DNA of 63,810 nucleotides, the filler included, from Craspedostauros australis (Eukaryota): NCBI GenBank assembly GCA_030167865.1. It is 11 parts of 11 records of this genome, joined end to end, with 100 filler letters (N's around TTAATTAATTAA, not from the genome) between each part and the next. Parts side by side here need not be neighbours in the genome. Positions count along the whole stretch, not along the records: positions 1 to 22,384 come from JALAGF010004131.1; 10 more parts are not named here. One strand, 5' to 3'. The position numbers were made by a program, and so were the translations under genes. Under the pieces are notes generated by a model that worked only from the letters and a program-made list of their open reading frames with translations, had not been told where the DNA came from and ran no database searches. The number at the start of each line of letters is the position of its first letter. The stretch's first letter is position 1. Below, piece by piece: positions 4,101 to 24,628 of this stretch.

Positions 4101-4698
4101 CGATGAGCCCATCGCAGGCCACGGCCAGATGACGTCCATCCGGACTCCATGTGACGCATTGCGCGCCCTTCAACGGTGCAGACACCGCCTCATTCTGCTC
4201 ATCGGAGCCCTGCGCGACCGTGATCTGCGACAGCTTTTGCCACGAGACGGTGCGATGGATCCACAGAGCCGTCGCTGGGCCAACAATCTCTGATGCTGAC
4301 GCGGCCGTCGAGGATGATTGCTGTTGCTGCTGTTGTTGGTGGTGTTGCGATGCCTTCGATTTGGCTCCAAGACCCAGCACCACAAGATCCATGGAGGGGC
4401 ACATGCGACAGGCGCTCGGCGTCAGTGGCGCCCAAAGCTTTCTGGATTGCACCGACGTGAAGCAATCGCGGGTGCTGGCAGCATCATCATCATCATGATC
4501 GTGGTCGTGCGAAGCATCTTCTGCATCTCCCTCCATCGTTATCGTTTCCAAGTCTCTCTTCGCTATTTGCATTCGAAGCTCGTAGTGGTGTGAGCAGCAG
4601 CCGCAGATGCCAGAGATACCAGAGATAGCAGAGATGCTAGAAATGTTGGAGATGTGATGGAGCGTGCCTCGATTCCGTGATACAGGATCGTGTGTCAT
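1172..4698 (-). CDS. APC4: Anaphase-promoting complex subunit 4 (2 exons: 4698/4572/4536..3863 and 3551..1172)
   Basis: Exon 1 has the APC4 N-terminal WD40 pattern (CPSMDLVVL...LWIHRTVSWQKL...CVTWSPDGRHLAVA). A phase-2 intron 3862..3552 (AG|GTGAGT...CGCAG|C) joins it in frame to the long helical ORF (W-S-YQSRY). Start ATG is uncertain. Confidence 0.8.
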
Positions 4699-8257: not shown

Positions 8258-11200
8258 TCATATTGAGCTGGTTTCCAAAAGGTGCAGCAGGATGAGCTGC
8301 ATTCCTGCTCGCCGCGCAAGACTGCCGGAGTCCAGCACGATGGATGGATTCGGTGGCGAGCACATGCGGAGCGCCATGCGTGCCAGATGAGCGGCTGCGA
8401 GGTTGTTCGATTCCTTGTACAGCAAGCATTCGCGGAAGAAGGAGATGAAGTACACGACGACGTTGTAGGAGATCGGTTGCAAGTCCTCCAACAGTCTGCG
8501 TGTCAAGGATTGGATGGTCTCCGGTCCGACCTCCGTGGTTGGGAATAGCGCCGGGGAGATGATCGGAACCGCCAAGCTGAAGCATAACTGCTGCAATGCT
8601 TCCACGAAGCAGTGCACGGAGAGGTTGGCAGGCAGAGCGGATCCCGTGTCCAGCGCCTCTCGGATGGCGCTGGTGGTTTCGGCGTGATTGAGGGGCGTTG
8701 TGGCGAAGAGGTTGGGCGTCTGAAGTCCCTTCTCGTGGATGGCATCGACGAGCCGCCACATCTCCTTTGGAATGCAAAGCGCCTGCGTGGGGCTGATGTC
8801 CTGCTGGGGATTCTGCACGCGTTTGATGGGATCGAGGGGAACCTCACGAATTGGATCCTTGTAGAGCACGAGGTCATCGCATGTCATTCCGAAGCATGAT
8901 CTGGCGTAGGTCGCGCTGACGGTGAGGTAGTAGTCCCTGCCATTTTCCAAGCGCAGCACGAGGATGTCATCCAACACTTCTCGGCCCGTGTTGAGGACTT
9001 GGGCGGTGCTGTTGTCGAGTGTGAGTGTGACGTTGATGGTGGCAGTCTGCTCACCGGGAATTAGCAATCCGTACGTTGGTTTCACTGACAGCCAGCTCTT
9101 GCAAAGGGTGTTCTGATCATTGCCAAAATGCGGTGTCGTAGTTTGTGTGTTGCAGTGCGCAATCGAATTGAGTTGTGGGTCGCAAAGGAAGATAGCGTGC
9201 GTATGGTACGGCGGTTGATCAATTCGGTGAGCTCATTCGTTCATTCAATCGTAGAAAGAATAGATGACGGGTGACGACCAACTGATTACGAGCATGCATG
9301 CAGAAACGTCTCCTCCCACTGTTCCTTCATGCTCATAGCTTGCCCCTCGTGGTCCAGCACATCAAACGCCACAGCATTCAAGCACGCAACGAACACCGCA
9401 GCGCAAATACTCCAACGTTGCACACTCACTTCTCCGGTTTTGGGGACGAATCTGAACTTCGCAACGACGTTGCCGGTGTTGGTGATCTGGATCGGCAACG
9501 TGATGGACTGCTGGTACCGGATTTTGCCGAACTTGAGCTCGTTGACATCCAGGCCGACGGTGGGAAGGGACTGATTCTCGTAGCGATCGAGCATGGTGAT
9601 GAGCTCCTTGTATATCATTTCGCGGCGCGCGACATCGACGTGCTTGACGATGAGGTTGAGCGTGGAGTAGACGGGCTTGTGATCTGAGATCTTTGGCGTC
9701 TCGCTGCGCTTGTAGGTCCACTGCTTGATGTGGGATGGATCCTGCGCCATCCATAGGATTCGGTCGCACCATGCGGGGGCTCTGAGCTTCTTGTCGGGAC
9801 GCTGTTCGTATCTGTGCGTTCCCGGCTGGTACTTGTAGGTTGGGGCGAAGGTGATGGGTCCCTCCATGAATCCCTCGAAGACCCTGCCTTCGGCTCGTTC
9901 GATGTTGAGCTGATCGAGCTTGAGCAAGGGTCCCAGGTTGTTGGCCTCCGCGAGCTTGAGGACGTGCTCGGTGGGCATGCTCTCGTCGATGCGGTAGTTG
10001 AGATCGCCGAGCCAGAGGACGACGTCATGATCTGCGATGCCGACGGATGAGTTTCCCGACGCCCACTGCGACATGCTGCCATTGCGGATGACCTCGGCGA
10101 CGGCCGATTCGCCCACCTCGAAGGTGCATTTGTTGAGGACGTTTGCGTAGTCGGCATTTCTGCCGGCGATGTTTTCACGATGGGCGGCCAAGTGTGAGCA
10201 GACGAAGCAGAGCGTGCTGTCGTAGAACTGCAATCGGATGGCGGCACCTCCCTTGTTTCCCATCATTCCCATGACGCCGACTCCCACGACGTTGCTGGAT
10301 GCGTGCTTGACGTAGTGACGGTGCGGTATCTTGACGAGCACGCAGATGAGGAGACCGACCATGGATTGCTGATGGACGAGGACGTAGCCATTGCGCTGCG
10401 GGTCGTTCATGGTCCGCTTGGGTGCGTTGACTGTCTGCAGAATGCGCTCCACCCAGTACTGCGATCGCTGCTGGGTCTTGCTGTCCACGGCGACGTTGAC
10501 AGCGTTGAGGTCGACAATCTCCTGGAAGCCCACGGCGATAAGATCTGGCGCGTACTGATGAGTCGCACCCCAATCGCTGCAAAGGAACTCCTCGAGACCT
10601 TCATCCTTTCCTTTGGCGTTCACATTCCAAGTTCCGCAAAACATCAAGGACTGGCAATTGGCGTATGATGATTGTCAGTTCGTTGAATGTTCATTGTCAG
10701 TTCATTGAATGTTCATTGGCAAGTTGTTGAGAGGTGACATATGAGTTGAGAGGAGGTGCATGTTTTGTGTTTTTGTTCATGAGCGTGGAACGAGCATGGA
10801 TTGAAATGGTGTGTCGATGAGCGTGTGTGAGGATGTGAGATGAATGGACTGCTTGATGAAAGCAACACCACAGAACAGAACAGAACAGGACATGATATGG
10901 CAGGACACTACAGGACATGATATGTCACGTGCATACGCATGCGCATGCATTGACTAACCTGACGATAGGTGGTGAATTCTTGCACACGAGATCTGATCTG
11001 CTTGTAGATCCACGAATCCCTGATCTTGGACATCGCCTCCTTGTTGCGGATCCTGCCATCCTCGGTCTCCTGATCCGCAGTGCGCGGCACCAGCACCTTG
11101 TGCTCGAGCTGTTCGATGCGAGAGAACGATTTCGCTGGCAGCGGCGTTGCCGTGGCAGGCGCCGACACGGATGCGGGAACGCGCGTGGGCGTTGTGGCCG

Positions 11201-14700: not shown

Positions 14701-15247
14701 AGCGGACGGATAACAGTATTGGTGGGTGGAGCAGAAGCGCAAGGGAGCGGTGTACGACATGCGAAACAACAGTGGAGAAGGATGATGTGATGTCGCAGCC
14801 GCCTTTCGAACATCTGTGGCTTCAGCAATAATAGATAATAGTAGTACAAACACCCCGCGAGATACCGTACCCTGCCACACTCTGTTCTGTGTGGTTCAAT
14901 TCGATCCATGCATTGGGACGAGCAAGAGCGACTTGGTATTACCCACATGACCATCCATGTCTCCTTCCTCTTCCAAGACTTCCAACACAACCAACACAAC
15001 GACCATCTGGGATCATAGTCGTGTAGCACCATAAACTACTGCTTGTATTCACAGTACTCATACTCATAGTAGTACTAATACGCACCCACAAACGCATCCG
15101 TAGTCATACACAACAAGCACACCGATACGGGCAGAATACGCAGCGTACTTGCAACAAGGAATAAGTTGCTCATCCAACACTCACAATAACCACACTGACA
15201 TCAATCATAATATCAGCAACAATCACAACAACAATCAGCACATCAAG

Positions 15248-16672
15248 ATGTACCAATCCAACAACGCACAGAAGCTGCAGCAGCATGGAGACTCGTCTCA
15301 GCCACGCAAGATGACGCAGCCACTCGGAAGCTCGTTCACTCTGCTGCCATGCGTGTCGAAGGACGATGCCACCCACTCGGTCACTCCGAGACGCGTCGCT
15401 GCTTCGTCCGGAGTCCCTCCCTCCCAATCAGCTTCTGCTATCGCAACTGCTGTCACAACTGCTTCCAAGAAGGGCACCCAGACCAGCAGCAGGTTGAGCA
15501 GCAGGTTGAGCACTGGAACTTCGCCGACCCATGAATCCGCATCCACTGAGCCACTCAATGATCAGCGGCAGTCTGCGGAAGATGATTGCCCTCACAGAGC
15601 GAAGCAGCAGCTGCACCAGAGAGCGACCGTGTCGCCCTTCGAACCCACGTCCGCCAGCACCAACACAGGCACAAGCAGCAGCACCAACGCCAACACCATT
15701 GCTGCAGTTGCCTCTGCACGCACCAGGAAATGCATCAGCCACAGCTATTCCGGCTCTGCCAGCAAAATCATTCCGACGAGACGGGCTTCGTCGCGACAGG
15801 CCAAGCGATTCTCGACGCAGCGATACTACTTCGGACTGCCCAAGGCGTTCCAGCCAGCGGGTGGGCGTGTCACTGCTCGTACTCATGTCAACCGCAGCCA
15901 AAGATGGTCCACCCATTCTCCAACTGCCCATCAGCCACGGCAACATAGTTATCAGCCCCAACATGATTATCACCACCAGCACCAGCAGTACGCAGCGGCA
16001 CACCACCATGAGTATCAACAGCAACATTCCCACATGCAATCGCAATCGCAAACACAATCACAAACGCAGTTCCACCACTACCCACAGTCGACCGAGAAGC
16101 AGGCGCACGGTGCATTCCGCCCACCGAGATGCCCGGCCCTTGGACGTCTCCATTCCGAACCTGTCATGCGATCCGTCACACGAGACTTTGCGGAGACATG
16201 GTATGCTGCTCAACGCGCCTCGGCATACGCTTACAGCCACGCACAGGCACAAACACAGGCACAGGCGGAGCATGGATATGCTCATGCCCGCGCTTCGCAT
16301 CATGCCAACTACCACCATCACCAGATGACGGTGCCGCACATGCTCACGCCCACACCCACAACCCACGTGTCTCACAATGCGCTGTCCTCCGCATCCAGGG
16401 ACTTGCTGCAGGACTTCAGTCGCGAGGCCGGTGCAGCGCGTCCTCCTTACTCCTACCACTACGCGCACAGCTATGCCCACCCGGCCTACTTCACGCCATG
16501 CGTCGTCAGCGCCTCCACGCCTCTCAAGCAACTCGATCCGCCTCATGAGCTCATGGATCTTCCACCCACCATCTTCATCGCCAACGGATACACCTCGGTT
16601 CCCAAGGATGAAGATCTGTCGGATGAAGATGATGACGACGAGGATGAGATCGACAATGACGAAGAGCAGTAG
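15248..16672 (+). CDS. Hypothetical low-complexity (S/T, Q/H-rich, acidic tail) protein
   Basis: Long ORF (15149..16672) with first ATG at 15248; no recognisable domain. Confidence 0.55.
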   Translation: MYQSNNAQKLQQHGDSSQPRKMTQPLGSSFTLLPCVSKDDATHSVTPRRVAASSGVPPSQSASAIATAVTTASKKGTQTSSRLSSRLSTGTSPTHESASTEPLNDQRQSAEDDCPHRAKQQLHQRATVSPFEPTSASTNTGTSSSTNANTIAAVASARTRKCISHSYSGSASKIIPTRRASSRQAKRFSTQRYYFGLPKAFQPAGGRVTARTHVNRSQRWSTHSPTAHQPRQHSYQPQHDYHHQHQQYAAAHHHEYQQQHSHMQSQSQTQSQTQFHHYPQSTEKQAHGAFRPPRCPALGRLHSEPVMRSVTRDFAETWYAAQRASAYAYSHAQAQTQAQAEHGYAHARASHHANYHHHQMTVPHMLTPTPTTHVSHNALSSASRDLLQDFSREAGAARPPYSYHYAHSYAHPAYFTPCVVSASTPLKQLDPPHELMDLPPTIFIANGYTSVPKDEDLSDEDDDDEDEIDNDEEQ

Positions 16673-18617
16673 AGCCGTAGCGTGTAACGTCGCGTGCCAC
16701 CAGTAACTCTAATACAGCTCACTTTCCAACCACAATCCAACATGAACGATTCTCATCGATACCATACTTGTGGCGTACAGTGTTCCACCTGCTGCAATGC
16801 TCGTGCCATCGATCAGTCCAAAGAAGAGTGGAAAAGGAGTGCGCACGTGAAAGCCGCTTCACACAATTTGCCTGTTGCGCGATCGCGAAATTGGGCATGT
16901 TCACTATCAGCGGACAACTCGCGAAAGCCGATCAGCACATCGCTGCCAACGCAGTATCATGGAGTCGTTGGTTGGAAATGCCAAAGTCGCGAATGTTCTG
17001 CACCCTCCTCTACGCCATGGGCAACGTCCGGGCACCAGTCTGAGCGCGGCAGACCACCGCGATGAACTCAAAAACGTGTTCAACGTTGTGCCAATCAACC
17101 ATGCTGCCCTGTGGATGAGCGTCGGTATGTCAACAGCACAACAGTACTCCATTTGTTCTAGAGAGCATAGAATCAACAGCTCCAACTGACGACCGATGCG
17201 CGGAACGGCCTGGTTCCAGACGCGTCTGTGATTATCCAACCCACACAAAGGCGTCGAATATTCATACGGTGTCTCTCGTTTATGGTTGGCTCGTCGTGAT
17301 GTCTGCTTGACTTGACTCTCCCTCTCTCGACAGCATAGCACAACAATGGCCTTCGATGCGTAGACGGTGGGAATTTCCTGTCCATACAGCACTTGCATCA
17401 TCTTCATCTCACGCACTTGCCGACATCGTATTGGCGATAGTAGTTGGAATTCCGCACAATTGTTCAAACCGCGTCGTGTGAAGGAACAACCGAGACAGCG
17501 CCTCACATTTTGCGAGCGAGAAAGGATGAGTTTTCAGTCATGTCAACATCAAGACAAGCACGACATCGCGAAGTCGAAGATTTGGCGAAGTGTCGTTTCA
17601 ATTGTGAAAGGAATATGAAAAGCACAAGCACCGAATCATGAACATCCAGATTGCTCCTTGTAATTTCATTCCAAATAGCACACACGCCTATTCGTGTATT
17701 AGTTTAGTCACGCTTCTGTCTGTTGAAAGAAGCACGATAGACATATCGTGATAGAGATGGTTGAAGTACAGAGACCAAATCATGTACATCGAAATGGAAC
17801 ACTGAACAGGTAGCACAAGCACCAATTCAGTATAATAGATTTGGTACCATCAAAAAGGTTTAAAAGTTGCGGTAAATCCAATTATATTTGCATATGATAT
17901 GATGTTTGAAATAAATATACAATATTACGTACGTTAGCCGTACGTAGGCGTTTCGCCACTGATAGCCATGCAAATAAGCCTAGATATTAGTTGCTCTCGA
18001 AAGGGGCGCACTTCGTCCGTTGGTGACCATGCTTTCAGGCGATAGCTCGGTTCATGATTTTACAAAGGTTGTTTTTCATCCACATTAGCAACCGGAGATG
18101 TAGCCGCCGTTTGAGTGGATCGATGCATGAACCTGTCCTCGTGCGTTCGCTGGAATCAAATTTAGAGCAGCCGCAGAGCACATTTCTGGACTCGTACAAC
18201 CTTCGCAAGACAAGGAGCCGCCATGGCAGGAAGCAGCCCGCAAAGCACAGTGTAACATGATGGCTGAAAGATGAAACTGTCATATTTATTGGTTGTATCG
18301 TACAAAGTTGTTGCTTGTCATGTTCTCGTTGAGGAATAGAGACCTTCCGAGGCAGGTGATTGATCGATTGGTTGGAAGTGGTGGTGACTGGACGGGCAGT
18401 TCATACCCATTCATCCATCCACTCCTTCACTCATCCGCTCGTATCATTCACTCGTCTCGGTTATCAATCCATTCGTCAATGTGAGGACGTGATGCTCGCA
18501 GACGCGCTTGTACGCACATCTGTAAGTATGATCATTGTCTTTCCATCTTCGTCTTTTTCTTTGGTGGTTTTCTTTCTTGTCTGTCTTCTGTGGTTGTGCA
18601 ATAGGCTATTGCACTTC

Positions 18618-18740
18618 AAGAGCATTCCAGTTGTTCCCTACCGCGCGCATTATCACGATCAGGTTCTAACGGTTTGAACGTTGGATCTTCAACATTTTAC
18701 GAATCTCAGCACTCAATGGCTCCCGCAAACGGAATGTCTT
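18618..18740 (-). ncRNA. TPP (thiamine pyrophosphate) riboswitch aptamer, putatively in the 3' UTR of the SSS transporter
   Basis: Minus strand reads AAGACAUUCCGUUU-GCGG-GAGCCAUUGAGUG-CUGAGA-UUCGUAA-AAUGUUG-AAGAUC-CAACGUU-CAA-ACCGU-UAGAA-CCUGAU-CGUG-AUAAUG-CGCG-CGGU-AGGGA-ACAACUGGAAUGCUCUU. All core TPP motifs (CUGAGA, GAACCUGAU, UAAUG, AGGGA) are in order, with P1, P2, an extra P3a hairpin, P4 and P5 pairings. Confidence 0.9.
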
Positions 18741-19137
18741 GGAATTAGACACATCAGATAGTCTTGTTTCTGTGGTGGTTTGGTGGAACGAGGAAGGGGC
18801 GGTAAGAAAGAGGGGGAAGCATGGATGAATTGGAGTGTGAGATGGGATGGGACGCGGTGAAGGCATGATGAATCACCACCATCCGAGTATTTGTGTGCGG
18901 TTGCTGTACGCCGAAACCGCCGCCGCCGGGTGCCACTTACTTTTTCATATGTATTGGTTTGTGTTCGTGTTGTGGAAGTATCACCAATCGTTTTGCAAGA
19001 TCAGCTTCACGACGGGTAGAACCTTCACGACGGGCAGAGCCGTCAGGAAGGTGCTGCGTTGTGATACTTCAGCAAGTGAATCTCCTTGTGGTCCCATTAG
19101 GATGGACCACATGGACGAATAATCGCTTGCTCTCTCT

Positions 19138-20928
19138 CTAGGCGGAGAGCTCCGAACCAGAACGGCCGGACCCGTCCATCTTCTTGGCATCGTCATCGTC
19201 GTGCTTGGAAGGATCGTCCTTGGCGAGATCATCCTTGCGGAGTTCGTCGCTGGAGGAGTCGCCCTTGCTGAGCTCCTTCGCCTCGGCGTCGTTGGCACCT
19301 TCGTCGACGGTGTCCTTGTCATCATCGTCGAATGCGACTGGGATGAGGGGCGAGCGGGCGCGTTCGCCGCGGGCCATGATGTCGATGAAGGAGAAGACGT
19401 AGGTCATAACGGCAGAAACGGCCGGGGTCACGATGAAGGAGACCATGGTCTTGCTTCCGCAGAGGGAGCAGATGCCCTCGTTCTCGAGCCAGAAGTACTC
19501 GAAGACACCGCCGTCGACGTCGTTGATGACGCCGTTGATCAAGACAGTGGCCATGCCGCTGAGGATTCCGAGGAAGGCACCCAGCTCGGTTGGTGCCGGG
19601 AGCATGCCTCCGAACATGTCCTTCTTTTGGAGTCCGAGGAAGGTTGGGAAGGCGGCCGTCGCGGCGACGAGATCGGCGACGAGGAAGAGGGAGATGACGT
19701 CGTACTTGTCCGACGCCATGTAGACAGCCGGGATGTTGAGGAGGACGACCAAGATACGTGCGATAGTCTGCGGCTTGTATCCGATCTTGACCAAGTCGTG
19801 GTAGAAGATGGAGGTGATTCCATTCTGCATACTGTCGATGGAGGAAGCGCAGAGGGCTGTCACGAGGATGAGAGAGATGACGTGCCATCCATTCGACAAT
19901 GGCTCCAAGAGGTCAAAGAACGCGAGGAAGGCGAACTTCTCGAAGTTGTCGTAGGCCTCTGGGTCGTTGGCGTAGGCGATCATTCCCATGATTCCGAAGA
20001 ACATCATGAGAAGGAAGATGAGGAGGGAGCCAAGGCCGAACCCCTTGCGGAGGGTTGGGACGTCCTTGGCGGCCCAGACACGCTGCCAAGTGGACTGGTT
20101 GAACATCTCAGCGGCGGCGATGGCGAGGATGAGGGTGACGGCGGCCATGAGACCCTCATCGGTGATATCGGAGGCCTTGGAGAACTCGCTGGAGCTGATC
20201 TGATTGTCGTCGCTGGACGTGACCGCGCCGAGGATGAGGACGACCAGGAAGAACATCATGACACCTTGAAACTTGTCGGTGACGATGGAAGCTGGGAGTC
20301 CGGCCACGCCGGTGTAGAAGAGCGTGAAGACGGCAATCGTGATGGTGACGCCAATTCCGAACCACTCGCGCATCTCGCCGGTGAGGAGAGCGTAGACGTT
20401 GCTGATGGTGGTGAGCTCCGCCACGATGGAGATGAACATCAAGAATCCGGAGATGCAGGCGATGGACATCTGCATGACGCGGCCGTAGCGCAAACGTCCG
20501 AAGTCGGTGGTGGAGAAGGCGCGGTGGCCTTCGGACTGCTCGCGGACCTTGGGTCCGAGCCAGCAAATGATGAGGGCCGGGATGGAGCTGGCTCCGGAGT
20601 ATCCGAGGACACCCAACCAGGAGAGCTGCGGGTTGGCACCCATCTCGGTGGTTCCGTAGACGATCCATGCACCCATGCCAGAGGCGAAGTTGGACAGGGC
20701 GATGGACCAGACCCCGGCGGAGTTTCTGGCGGCGAGGAAGTAGTCGATGGCGCCGGCAGCAGTTCCGCCCTCACCCACCTTTGGCTGGTCGAGCAAGAGG
20801 AACCTGGAGACGTTCTCGGGGATGAGGTGGGACATGAAGTCGGCGGCTGCGATGGCCAACATTGTGAAGATGATGAGGACCACGAACAGGATCGCCCATG
20901 CTGCGGATTCACTCACGTTGAACCCCAT
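19138..20928 (-). CDS. Sodium:solute symporter family transporter (SSSP-like, probable thiamine/thiamine-precursor uptake)
   Basis: 596 aa, many TM segments, SSS motifs (DYFLAARN, FASGMGAW, YTGVAGLPASIVTDKFQG, QSTWQRVWAAKD); strong codon bias; TPP aptamer downstream on the same strand. Confidence 0.88.
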   Translation of the reverse strand: MGFNVSESAAWAILFVVLIIFTMLAIAAADFMSHLIPENVSRFLLLDQPKVGEGGTAAGAIDYFLAARNSAGVWSIALSNFASGMGAWIVYGTTEMGANPQLSWLGVLGYSGASSIPALIICWLGPKVREQSEGHRAFSTTDFGRLRYGRVMQMSIACISGFLMFISIVAELTTISNVYALLTGEMREWFGIGVTITIAVFTLFYTGVAGLPASIVTDKFQGVMMFFLVVLILGAVTSSDDNQISSSEFSKASDITDEGLMAAVTLILAIAAAEMFNQSTWQRVWAAKDVPTLRKGFGLGSLLIFLLMMFFGIMGMIAYANDPEAYDNFEKFAFLAFFDLLEPLSNGWHVISLILVTALCASSIDSMQNGITSIFYHDLVKIGYKPQTIARILVVLLNIPAVYMASDKYDVISLFLVADLVAATAAFPTFLGLQKKDMFGGMLPAPTELGAFLGILSGMATVLINGVINDVDGGVFEYFWLENEGICSLCGSKTMVSFIVTPAVSAVMTYVFSFIDIMARGERARSPLIPVAFDDDDKDTVDEGANDAEAKELSKGDSSSDELRKDDLAKDDPSKHDDDDAKKMDGSGRSGSELSA

Positions 20929-22747: not shown

Positions 22748-24211
22748 TTATTTCGCTTCCTCGGCAGCGCCGTCGCTCTCAGCCACCCTGGAGGATGTGA
22801 TGGAACGCACGAAGCGCAACAGCGCGACGCGATCCATGTACGAATCCACCTGCACAGCCCCCTCGTCTTCATCCACAACCTTGTACAACTCCATCATGGA
22901 CATGCCACCATATTCATCATCACCTCCATCGGCCACCATTCCCTCACTGCAAAGGACATGAATGTCTCCCATCAGTTGATGATGTGGAATCAGCTTGCTG
23001 AAATCTGGATGAGCAAGTAATGTCTGCATGTTTTGAGCTGCCATCCTCGTTGCCGCGTCTTTCAGCAGTGCACAGTCATGCTGATCGGCGAATATCAATG
23101 TATGCACCATGGTGTCCTGTGTGAGATGCTTGCGGGCCAACTCCGCTTCAACAACAAGCTTGAGTCGCCAGAAGCCGAACTCGTTGGCCACAAGGACCAG
23201 CTGTTGCAGATCGCCCTGTCCATTGAAGGAGCGGGGTGGCTGGTCCGTGCTATCAGGATCAGTGTCGTCACGAGTGTTGTTGCTGAAGGATATCTCACCT
23301 ATGTAGATGCATTGGAGGTTATGTTGGACGTGTTTTGGTTGAAGGTTGGGAAGAGAGACGGTTGCTTGCATGGGGGCCGCGTAGTCTTCTGTGCCATCAT
23401 TCGTGTGGTGATGTTGGATTCCTATGTCGATCAGTATCTCAATGGAGGGGAGGGTGATCATTAGGACTTCGGAGTTTGCCTTGATTGGTTACTGTTCGTC
23501 GTCCTGTCCACACAAGAAGACGGAATCTGTCCNNNNNNNNNNNNNNNNNNNNNNNNNNNNNNNNNNNNNNNNNNNNNNNNNNNNNNNNNNNNNNNNNNNN
23601 NNNTTGTGTTCATTCTCTTGCCTCTTTCGCTTCAACTGCTGTCTCAACTGTTGTTGTGGTTGTTCATTTGCTTGTTCCTTCTGTTCCTTCAGGTTCAACT
23701 GCTGCCCCAACTGTTGTTGCAGCTGTTCCTTCTCTGGCTCATTCTGTTGTGAGCGTTGTTGCGGTTGTTGCGGTTGTTGCAGTTGTGGGCGAACTGAAGG
23801 CGAAAGTCCTCTAATGAGGTACTCGATACACTTCAGCTGGTTGTTGTGGCATGCCCAATGAAAGGGAGTGTCACCATTGTTGTTTTGGCAGTTGGCGTCA
23901 GCTCCACACGATTTCATGAGGTACTCGATACACTCCAGGTGGCCAAAGCGGCATGCTGCATGAAGGGGAGTGAAGCCTTTGCTGGTTTTGCAGTTGGCAT
24001 TGGCCCCACATGATTCGATGAGGTACTGCACACACTCCAGGTGGCCATTGCAGCATGCCCAAAAAAGGGGAGTCCAACCAAGCCAGTCTGGAACCTTGTT
24101 GATGTCAACTCCTTCATCTTGCGTCTCGTTCTGCTTCTTCCATTCCTTCAACACCGACAAGCCACCTACCCTGGCAGCACGAAGGAGTTGTTGGTCAGTG
24201 ACATTCGGCAT
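22748..24211 (-). pseudogene. Ankyrin + Gln-rich linker + BTB/BACK-like gene with in-frame TAA at 23491..23489 (spans an N gap)
   Basis: About 3 ANK repeats (GWTPLFWACCNGHLECVQYL...). After the gap the frame reads TDSVFLCGQDDEQ*PIKANSEVLMITLPSIEIL...LVLVANEFGFWRLKLVVEAEL...LIFADQHDCALLKDAA, i.e. a BTB start interrupted by a stop, followed by SPOP-like BACK helices. Confidence 0.6.
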
Positions 24212-24628
24212 TTTGAGGGGATGGTCGATGGCGTTGGATTGGCTGCCAAGGAAGTGTGCAGTTTGAGCTATCTATGGCAGAGATATCGATCATGTGTCTT
24301 CAATAGCTTGTATTAGTATTCGGATGAGTACCATGCACTGTGTGGTATCTCGATGTCTGTTGCTGATGTGCTCGAGTATGGGAGTAAATGGTGTGTGTTG
24401 TCGTGGGTGTTTCGAATGCGATCCCGAGGTCCCGTCACTCAAACGAGTCGTACGAGTGAAGAGCGATTCGCGACTCCACTTTGTCGCGTGTGTGTGTATC
24501 CTTGACTCAGAAATGTTCGCCATTTGCGTTCGCTGAGATTCTCCCTCGAGAAGGCAACAACACACATCACGCAAACTTCGACCCACGATACCCAAACACG
24601 ATACGTACTCTCCTCGAGAGTAAACATC

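Follow-up and report, generated by a model that had tools for sequence, protein, structure and literature searches.

Introduction

A sequence resembling the thiamine pyrophosphate (TPP) riboswitch aptamer lies downstream of a sodium:solute symporter gene in Craspedostauros australis (GCA_030167865.1), which raises the question of whether it is a true aptamer, whether it belongs to the mRNA of the transporter and what it could do there. The window, that is, the whole stretch of DNA that was analysed, comprises 63,810 nucleotides in 11 joined parts, filler included, and the site occupies positions 18618-18740 on the minus strand. Diatoms account for a large share of marine primary production, and the exchange of vitamin B1 shapes plankton communities. 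Their TPP aptamers are a standing puzzle, being strongly conserved, yet unresponsive in the published tests so far.

TPP riboswitches have been predicted at the SSSP genes of numerous algal lineages, diatoms among them (McRose 2014, PMC4260697). The marine algal SSSP aptamers mostly reside in 5'UTRs, many of the genes being single-exon and without an apparent splicing mechanism (PMC4260697). In diatoms, aptamers are reported at 12 of 13 SSSP and 11 of 15 THIC genes, all of them in the 3'UTR, so that an aptamer at the present SSSP gene is to be expected (Llavero-Pasquina 2022, PMC9544697). The hosts of the diatom subclass are thiamine-related genes (THIC, SSSP, NMT1 and FOLR) and its signature combines a P2 of 'GCGG' with a P3a that lies between CUGAGA and the P2 3' strand and varies in length (PMC9544697). 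Two statements of the original prediction concern this literature, namely that aptamers are known in UTRs of algal SSS genes and that those of model diatoms were reported not to respond to thiamine; the former is confirmed in both papers (PMC9544697; PMC4260697) and the latter in PMC9544697.

The aptamer and its family

The elements of the site and its immediate downstream flank are as follows.

18618-18740, minus strand: TPP-type aptamer with extended P1, identified by RF00059, by the model R1 built here and by 35/35 conserved columns
18728-18740, minus strand: P1 5' strand, AAGA (18740-18737), CAUUCC (18736-18731) and GUU (18730-18728), from direct reading and the R1 alignment
18704-18726, minus strand: P2 5' strand GCGG, short P3 (AGC...GCU) and the pyrimidine-sensor motif CUGAGA (18709-18704)
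18726-18723 and 18672-18669, minus strand: P2, GCGG paired with CCGU
18677-18696, minus strand: P3a hairpin of 7 bp, AAUGUUG (18696-18690) and CAACGUU (18683-18677), with loop AAGAUC
18635-18672, minus strand: CCGU (P2 3' strand), J2/4 UAGAA, P4 CCUG/UAGG, P5, the GCG pyrophosphate motif and AGGGA
18666-18658, minus strand: GAACCUGAU, from direct reading
18657-18644, minus strand: P5, CGUG, loop AUAAUG and CGCG
18639-18635, minus strand: AGGGA
18618-18632, minus strand: P1 3' strand, AAC (18632-18630), bulged U, GGAAUG (18628-18623), bulged C and UCUU (18621-18618)
18596-18614, minus strand: 8-bp hairpin GUGCAAUA / UAUUGCAC with a triloop, 3 nt past P1, from folding against shuffles

Direct reading of the minus strand recovers every aptamer element that had been listed in the original prediction, each at its position, and the pyrophosphate-sensor arm is present with ACCUGAU, P4/P5, the GCG motif and AGGGA at 18672-18635. 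The proposed check with RF00059 (TPP) on the minus strand yields a significant match over the full model (1-105) at 18616-18736, with an E-value of 3.6e-7 when E-value thresholds are applied to 601 nt (18400-19000), though its 43.3 bits lie below the RF00059 gathering score of 54.3 bits, which is an operational cut-off. For this reason, an Rfam scan of the whole window at gathering thresholds returned 0 matches. At the SSSP loci of relatives (described below), just 7 of 54 Rfam matches reach 54.3 bits, so the sub-threshold score of the window is typical of the subclass, and standard annotation at Rfam thresholds would miss most of its SSSP-linked aptamers.

A second covariance model, R1, was built from 15 relatives with the window left out. 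It identifies a single site in the whole window on both strands, 18611-18741 (minus), at 56.5 bits and a rough E-value of 2.5e-11. Across an alignment containing 51 distinct relatives, the window carries the majority base at 35 of the 35 columns that are at least 90% conserved, CUGAGA at 18709-18704 falling within such columns. The near-invariant bases in the relatives are those conserved in the Rfam cross-kingdom model, namely CUGAGA, ACCUGAU, GCG and AGGGA. Judged from these profiles, 18618-18740 is almost certainly homologous to the TPP aptamer. It is assigned to the class of diatom 3'UTR TPP aptamers that McRose 2014 and Llavero-Pasquina 2022 reported, and hence to a kind already described; a 30-nt string of the window aptamer has 0 occurrences in four supplementary table files of PMC9544697.

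The folding energy of the aptamer is ordinary (MFE -34.3 kcal/mol, z -0.44, 70 of 200 shuffles equally good), and since MFE folding does no better than in shuffles, it is the profile rather than thermodynamics that supports the aptamer. The perfect 8-bp hairpin at 18596-18614 folds at -8.7 kcal/mol (z -3.3), a value that none of 200 shuffles equals; inspection by eye of 42 tails of relatives showed no evident counterpart downstream of P1. A hairpin just 5' of P1 in the window (18741-18775) was considered and rejected, 107 of 200 shuffles being as good. Directly 5' of the extended P1, the UTR alignment of a Fragilariopsis/Pseudo-nitzschia-like group holds a conserved hairpin formed by GUUGAA, about 8 nt and UUCAAC (loci L005, L006, L007, L009, L010, L012, L016, L018, L019, L026, L031, L035, L036 and L039); no significant equivalent of this type occurs 5' of P1 in the window.

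The host gene and its surroundings

The gene that precedes the aptamer on the same strand is a single open frame.

19138-20928, minus strand: single-exon ORF P0001 of 596 aa, SSSP-type sodium:solute symporter homologue, stop codon at 19140-19138

A search of 5.8 billion proteins returned 379 relatives of P0001 with E<=0.001, many with precomputed PF00474, and none identical to it. The closest are diatom proteins of 50-70% identity, with query coverage of up to 98-100%, and the source names of the best ones include Seminavis robusta, Epithemia, Pseudo-nitzschia (Psemu1), Conticribra, Thalassiosira and Cyclotella. P0001 shares 64% identity (321/505) with P0038, whose gene-model name is that of the Pseudo-nitzschia multiseries SSSP with a 3'UTR aptamer in Table S1b (PMC9544697). 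TIGR00813 'sss', with a cut-off of 184, matches residues 63-401 of P0001 at a sub-threshold score of 57.9 bits and an E-value of 9.3e-16. No Pfam family is found in P0001 even at E<=10; for PF00474 the same holds for the published SSSP P0038, and the homologue P0025 is matched by PF00474 at 52.3 bits. Because the best relatives are diatom proteins, one of them the SSSP P0038, the host gene is a diatom SSSP homologue, and the sodium:solute symporter named in the original prediction is thereby upheld by relatives, TIGR00813 and the identity to P0038 together. P0001 is predicted to be a thiamine transporter. PtSSSP is required for thiamine uptake, which is abolished in its knock-out (PMC9544697).

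No thiamine-related family was found in 16 neighbouring ORFs between 8 and 31 kb, and no Pfam family was recognised in ORFs of 16.0-18.4 kb on either strand. A 522-aa open frame at 15104-16669 (plus) has a high content of Q, H, S and T, carries an acidic tail and matches no Pfam family; it is convergent with the SSSP gene, and the 16.7-18.6 kb interval between the two is without recognised coding sequence. Further away, 8261-10674 (minus) holds an inositol polyphosphate 5-phosphatase gene (Exo_endo_phos2, OCRL-like ASH and RhoGAP) in two ORFs; part of the ASH domain lies in each, which implies a short intron near 9232-9289. The junction of this OCRL-like gene at about 9232-9289 is ambiguous, so it provides no splice-signal reference for the organism. 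At 22751-24271 (minus), adjoining ORFs carry ankyrin repeats and a BACK domain, with a masked N run inside (23533-23602).

Aptamers at the SSSP loci of relatives

Alignment of 20 SSSP proteins led to a set of 80 SSSP loci on metagenome contigs. At E<=0.01, Rfam gives a sense-strand TPP match in 54 of the 80 (17, 14, 12 and 11 per batch of 20), and R1, run on 81 sources, finds 54 loci and the window; it adds L030, L032, L045, L046 and L055 to the Rfam set and misses five matches of the upstream type. In union, the two models place a sense-strand aptamer at 59 of 80 SSSP loci, 53 downstream and 6 upstream of the coding sequence. The upstream cases (L053, L062, L066, L076, L078 and L080) belong to distant relatives of 42-49% identity, in agreement with the variable position that McRose et al. 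describe (PMC4260697).

Among the 21 loci without a match, 13 have less than 150 nt past the stop or no stop on the contig, the contigs of L011, L028 and L063 end within a recognisable aptamer, and six loci with more than 200 nt of downstream sequence still have no aptamer match. A second aptamer core downstream in L049 proved to be an artefact, the anchor pattern having fallen inside a long insertion. P3a varies in length among the relatives, and in many of them P3 is very short (AGC-GUA-GCU).

These counts bear on the possibility that the site matches by chance, is a decaying relic or belongs to another gene, for instance to the 5' region of a minus-strand gene further downstream or to an antisense transcript. 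The score under the Rfam gathering threshold and the ordinary folding energy would accord with it, as would a 105-aa plus-strand ORF (18360-18677) that overlaps the aptamer site. It is opposed by the E-values of Rfam and of the independent R1, by the sense-strand aptamers at 59 of the 80 SSSP loci, by the retention of all 35 invariant columns, and by ORFs of 16.0-18.4 kb and 16 neighbours in which, respectively, no Pfam family and no thiamine gene is seen. An origin of this sort already looks refuted and is very improbable.

Covariation and the long P1

The secondary structure was evaluated on 55 matches (51 distinct), fitted to the model and with 15 of the 55 rows forming the seed of R1, in which standard pairs occupy 91.4% of cells, against 71.4% in shuffles and 32-44% when the partner is slid by 1-3 columns. 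Double-sided changes occur at 37 of 41 pairs, and on none of the five measures does any of 500 shuffles attain the observed value. In P4 and P5, 98-99% of cells hold a pair and compensatory changes are present; one pair of P5 is GC in 24 sequences and AU in 23. The junction architecture of P1-P2-P3 and P4-P5 is backed by this covariation, P1 being confirmed by an alignment-free comparison as well. At the DNA level, a blastn query of 1.1 kb (coding end, UTR and downstream sequence) aligns to relatives only at 18625-18679, the P2'-P4-P5 core, in 9 matches of 39-54 nt and 83-91% identity; the aptamer is thus an island of purifying selection.

P1 consists of two stacked helices of 8 and 5 pairs, which are paired in 88.5% and 84.9% of cells, with compensatory changes at 13 of 13 modelled pairs across relatives. 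For the alignment-free check, the 22 nt before P2 were paired with the 27 nt past AGGGA, 12 of the 55 matches being dropped as their anchors were unmatched. Cognate flanks form duplexes of -12.5 kcal/mol on average compared with -6.6 for non-cognate ones, and in 36 of 39 distinct sequences the cognate pairing is more stable than the average over ten foreign partners; for the window the values are -14.9 kcal/mol with its own and -5.2 with foreign flanks. On the evidence of these alignments and pairings, P1 is a conserved clamp of 12-20 bp, general in the SSSP aptamers. In the window it is a 13-bp clamp, stable enough that it should form whether or not ligand is present, which argues against a mechanism of P1-strand exchange.

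The presumed 3'UTR and a candidate intron

Two further features lie between the coding sequence and the aptamer.

18741-19137, minus strand: presumed 3'UTR from stop codon to aptamer, 397 nt, by position
18770-18940, minus strand: candidate 3'UTR intron of 171 nt, by sequence signals (GTAAGT at 18940, pyrimidine-rich tract, CAG ending at 18770)

The distance of about 400 nt originally estimated between stop and aptamer is accurate, the stop codon at 19140-19138 being separated from 18740 by 397 nt. In relatives this gap spans 9-229 nt with a median of 63 (45 loci with positive distance; three further loci gave negative gaps with the crude stop finder), so that the gap of about 397 nt (397-401) in the window exceeds all 45 measurable relatives.

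Inclusion of the aptamer in the transcript can be approached through the contigs of relatives. Of the 48 downstream Rfam matches, 36 lie on contigs shorter than 3 kb that consist of the coding sequence, short flanks and the aptamer; 35 of the 36 extend at least 30 nt beyond the aptamer (median 120 nt), and 4 finish in runs of at least 5 A, 88-184 nt past it. Since these short contigs hold coding sequence and aptamer and run beyond, the aptamer would be retained in transcript-like molecules, and by comparison with them the window aptamer probably belongs to the SSSP mRNA.

The signals of the candidate intron bear on a further explanation, in which the aptamer is a switch that controls the removal of the 3'UTR intron 18940-18770 or the choice of a downstream 3' end, altering mRNA stability in the manner of plant THIC. 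Between stop and aptamer there is only one GT[AG][AC]GT and only one YAG with a pyrimidine tract of at least 70%, and the candidate acceptor CAG ends 29 nt before P1. The same GTAAG...YAG layout (CAG|GTAAGA or AAG|GTAAGT) recurs in L008 and L023-25, with the YAG 24-37 nt before the aptamer. Among the 48 downstream Rfam matches, no others have a stop-to-aptamer gap as large as these four, which lie on contigs of 12-23 kb. The mutual similarity of L008 and L023 returns just past the proposed acceptor, which also speaks for such a switch. In these two relatives the candidate intron would span about 4367-4482 (L008) and about 4310-4427 (L023).

The window donor region pairs with the 5' part of the aptamer at -25.5 kcal/mol, a value matched by 1 of 300 shuffles and again favourable to a switch of this type; as a conserved feature, however, this pairing was rejected, L008 and L023 lying at the 13% and 69% shuffle quantiles. 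Also adverse is L049, a 12-kb contig read by eye, with a 66-nt gap and no GTAAG, as are seven other loci on contigs longer than 3 kb, where gaps of at most 85 nt leave little room for an intron. From its sequence signals, the 3'UTR intron 18940-18770 is a tentative candidate, which may be real with a likelihood somewhat under even; that its splicing is regulated seems a distant prospect. A switch acting on this intron or on 3' end choice is accordingly rated as quite unlikely.

Comparison with known TPP systems

A TPP riboswitch in the 3'UTR of plant THIC was reportedly described by Wachter in 2007. The plant THIC 3'UTR switch works by changing mRNA stability. It shares with the present case the status of a eukaryotic 3'UTR TPP aptamer, here possibly adjoining a 3'UTR intron; the two differ in that the host here is a transporter and there THIC, and a thiamine response has been shown for the plant switch and not in diatoms. 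Plants and green algae use an AG acceptor inside P2 ('AGGG'), whereas diatoms have 'GCGG' without such an acceptor (PMC9544697).

The nearest systems are the diatom SSSP 3'UTR aptamers (Fragilariopsis cylindrus, Pseudo-nitzschia multiseries, Phaeodactylum tricornutum, Thalassiosira pseudonana and others), with which the window has in common the host family (PMC4260697, PMC9544697), the sense-strand site downstream of the stop codon, and a structure with P2 GCGG lacking the AG acceptor, P3a, P4/P5 and an A-rich start of the P1 3' strand. The window P5 is CGUG/CGCG compared with CAUG/CAUG or CGGG/CCUG in four SSSP aptamers of Table S1a (PMC9544697). Its P3a is short (7 bp), unlike the published diatom SSSP ones, and its gap is the longest seen, possibly by way of the intron. 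The covarying P1 clamp of at least 13 bp in the window and relatives contrasts with Table S1a, which gives P1 as 3 nt (PMC9544697).

Prasinophyte and other algal SSSP/SSSF riboswitches likewise combine this transporter family with a TPP aptamer in a UTR, but the algal SSSP aptamers are mostly found in the 5'UTR and that of the window is downstream of the coding sequence (PMC4260697). With the bacterial TPP riboswitch or THI element (RF00059), the core motifs and three-way junction are common and the full-length model aligns. Differences are the absence of a terminator or ribosome-binding-site platform in the window, one flipped P2 pair (GGGG/CCC to GCGG/CCG), an inserted P3a hairpin, a far longer P1 and a score under the family threshold.

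Proposed function

The functional record of the diatom aptamers is largely negative. PtTHIC and PtSSSP transcripts were unresponsive to 10 uM thiamine or HMP; with the PtTHIC 3'UTR, isoforms were unchanged and no reporter regulation was seen; mutation of the PtTHIC aptamer left thiamine levels unchanged; the TpTHIC test was also negative, and thiamine lowered TpSSSP by about one third (P 0.03) (PMC9544697). A chimera in which only P3 and L2/4 were of diatom type, the remainder being that of a working Chlamydomonas aptamer, gave no response, so that either the binding of TPP or its transduction may be lacking in diatom aptamers, the authors leaving undecided which of the two fails (PMC9544697). 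No new functional test of diatom aptamers appeared among the papers that a search of the literature after 2022 listed.

These published negatives are substantial and give weight to the main alternative, a conserved element that descends from a TPP riboswitch but has lost the ability to sense thiamine status, its fold being kept for another job, be it protein binding, recognition of another small molecule (a thiamine precursor or breakdown product), or stability or localisation through the 3'UTR. The thiamine and HMP results, including the failed P3/L2-4 chimera, point in this direction (PMC9544697), and so do the very short P3 of many relatives and the long, ligand-independent P1, which are unusual for a switching aptamer. 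However, the invariant bases are those of the Rfam cross-kingdom model, a pattern difficult to account for unless selection has maintained the same ligand pocket, and the association with thiamine genes has been maintained. Furthermore, the published tests dealt mainly with THIC, and with supplementation rather than starvation (PMC9544697). The main text of that paper contains no mention of starvation, deprivation or limitation, and the low-thiamine regime, the relevant one for an uptake gene, appears untested in it (PMC9544697); thiamine-deprivation qPCR was run in Micromonas by McRose et al. (PMC4260697). A co-opted element is a possible explanation, though a somewhat doubtful one.

The preferred reading is that of a feedback sensor. 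The aptamer would be part of the SSSP 3'UTR, as in the relatives, would still bind TPP or a very close analogue and would act on the fate of the transporter mRNA through its stability, 3'-end processing or translation. The mechanism is probably not classical P1-strand exchange; as P1 would form with or without ligand, the effect of the ligand would arise from docking of the two sensor arms in a domain that is always closed. Such an effect may appear only at low cellular TPP, and a sensor active only in that range would explain the null result of thiamine supplementation in prototrophic model diatoms. Taken as a whole, a feedback sensor that keeps its TPP pocket in a permanently closed domain, working probably only when TPP is scarce, is a reading that comes close to even likelihood and stays slightly beneath it. 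Regarding its parts, the putative binding of TPP or an analogue is evenly poised, and the putative regulation of expression by thiamine status is rather unlikely.

A more specific form of the sensor would involve a eukaryotic mechanism that is so far undescribed, in which ligand compaction of the P1-clamped domain (12-20 bp) controls the adjoining 3'UTR intron or a downstream 3'-end site, either in the low-TPP range only or with a thiamine precursor or breakdown product as ligand. A clamped sensor of this kind, acting only at low TPP or on another ligand, would equally explain the supplementation nulls; it is regarded as improbable.

Implications

Compared with what has been published on the subclass, the additions made here are small, namely a conserved long P1, covariation over 51 distinct sequences, the observation that the Rfam threshold misses most of the subclass, and a candidate intron. 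The puzzle of the diatom TPP aptamers is left unsolved by the C. australis instance, but the comparative set sharpens it: 59 aptamers at 80 loci, every ligand-contact position kept, a covarying long P1 and a possible adjoining intron.
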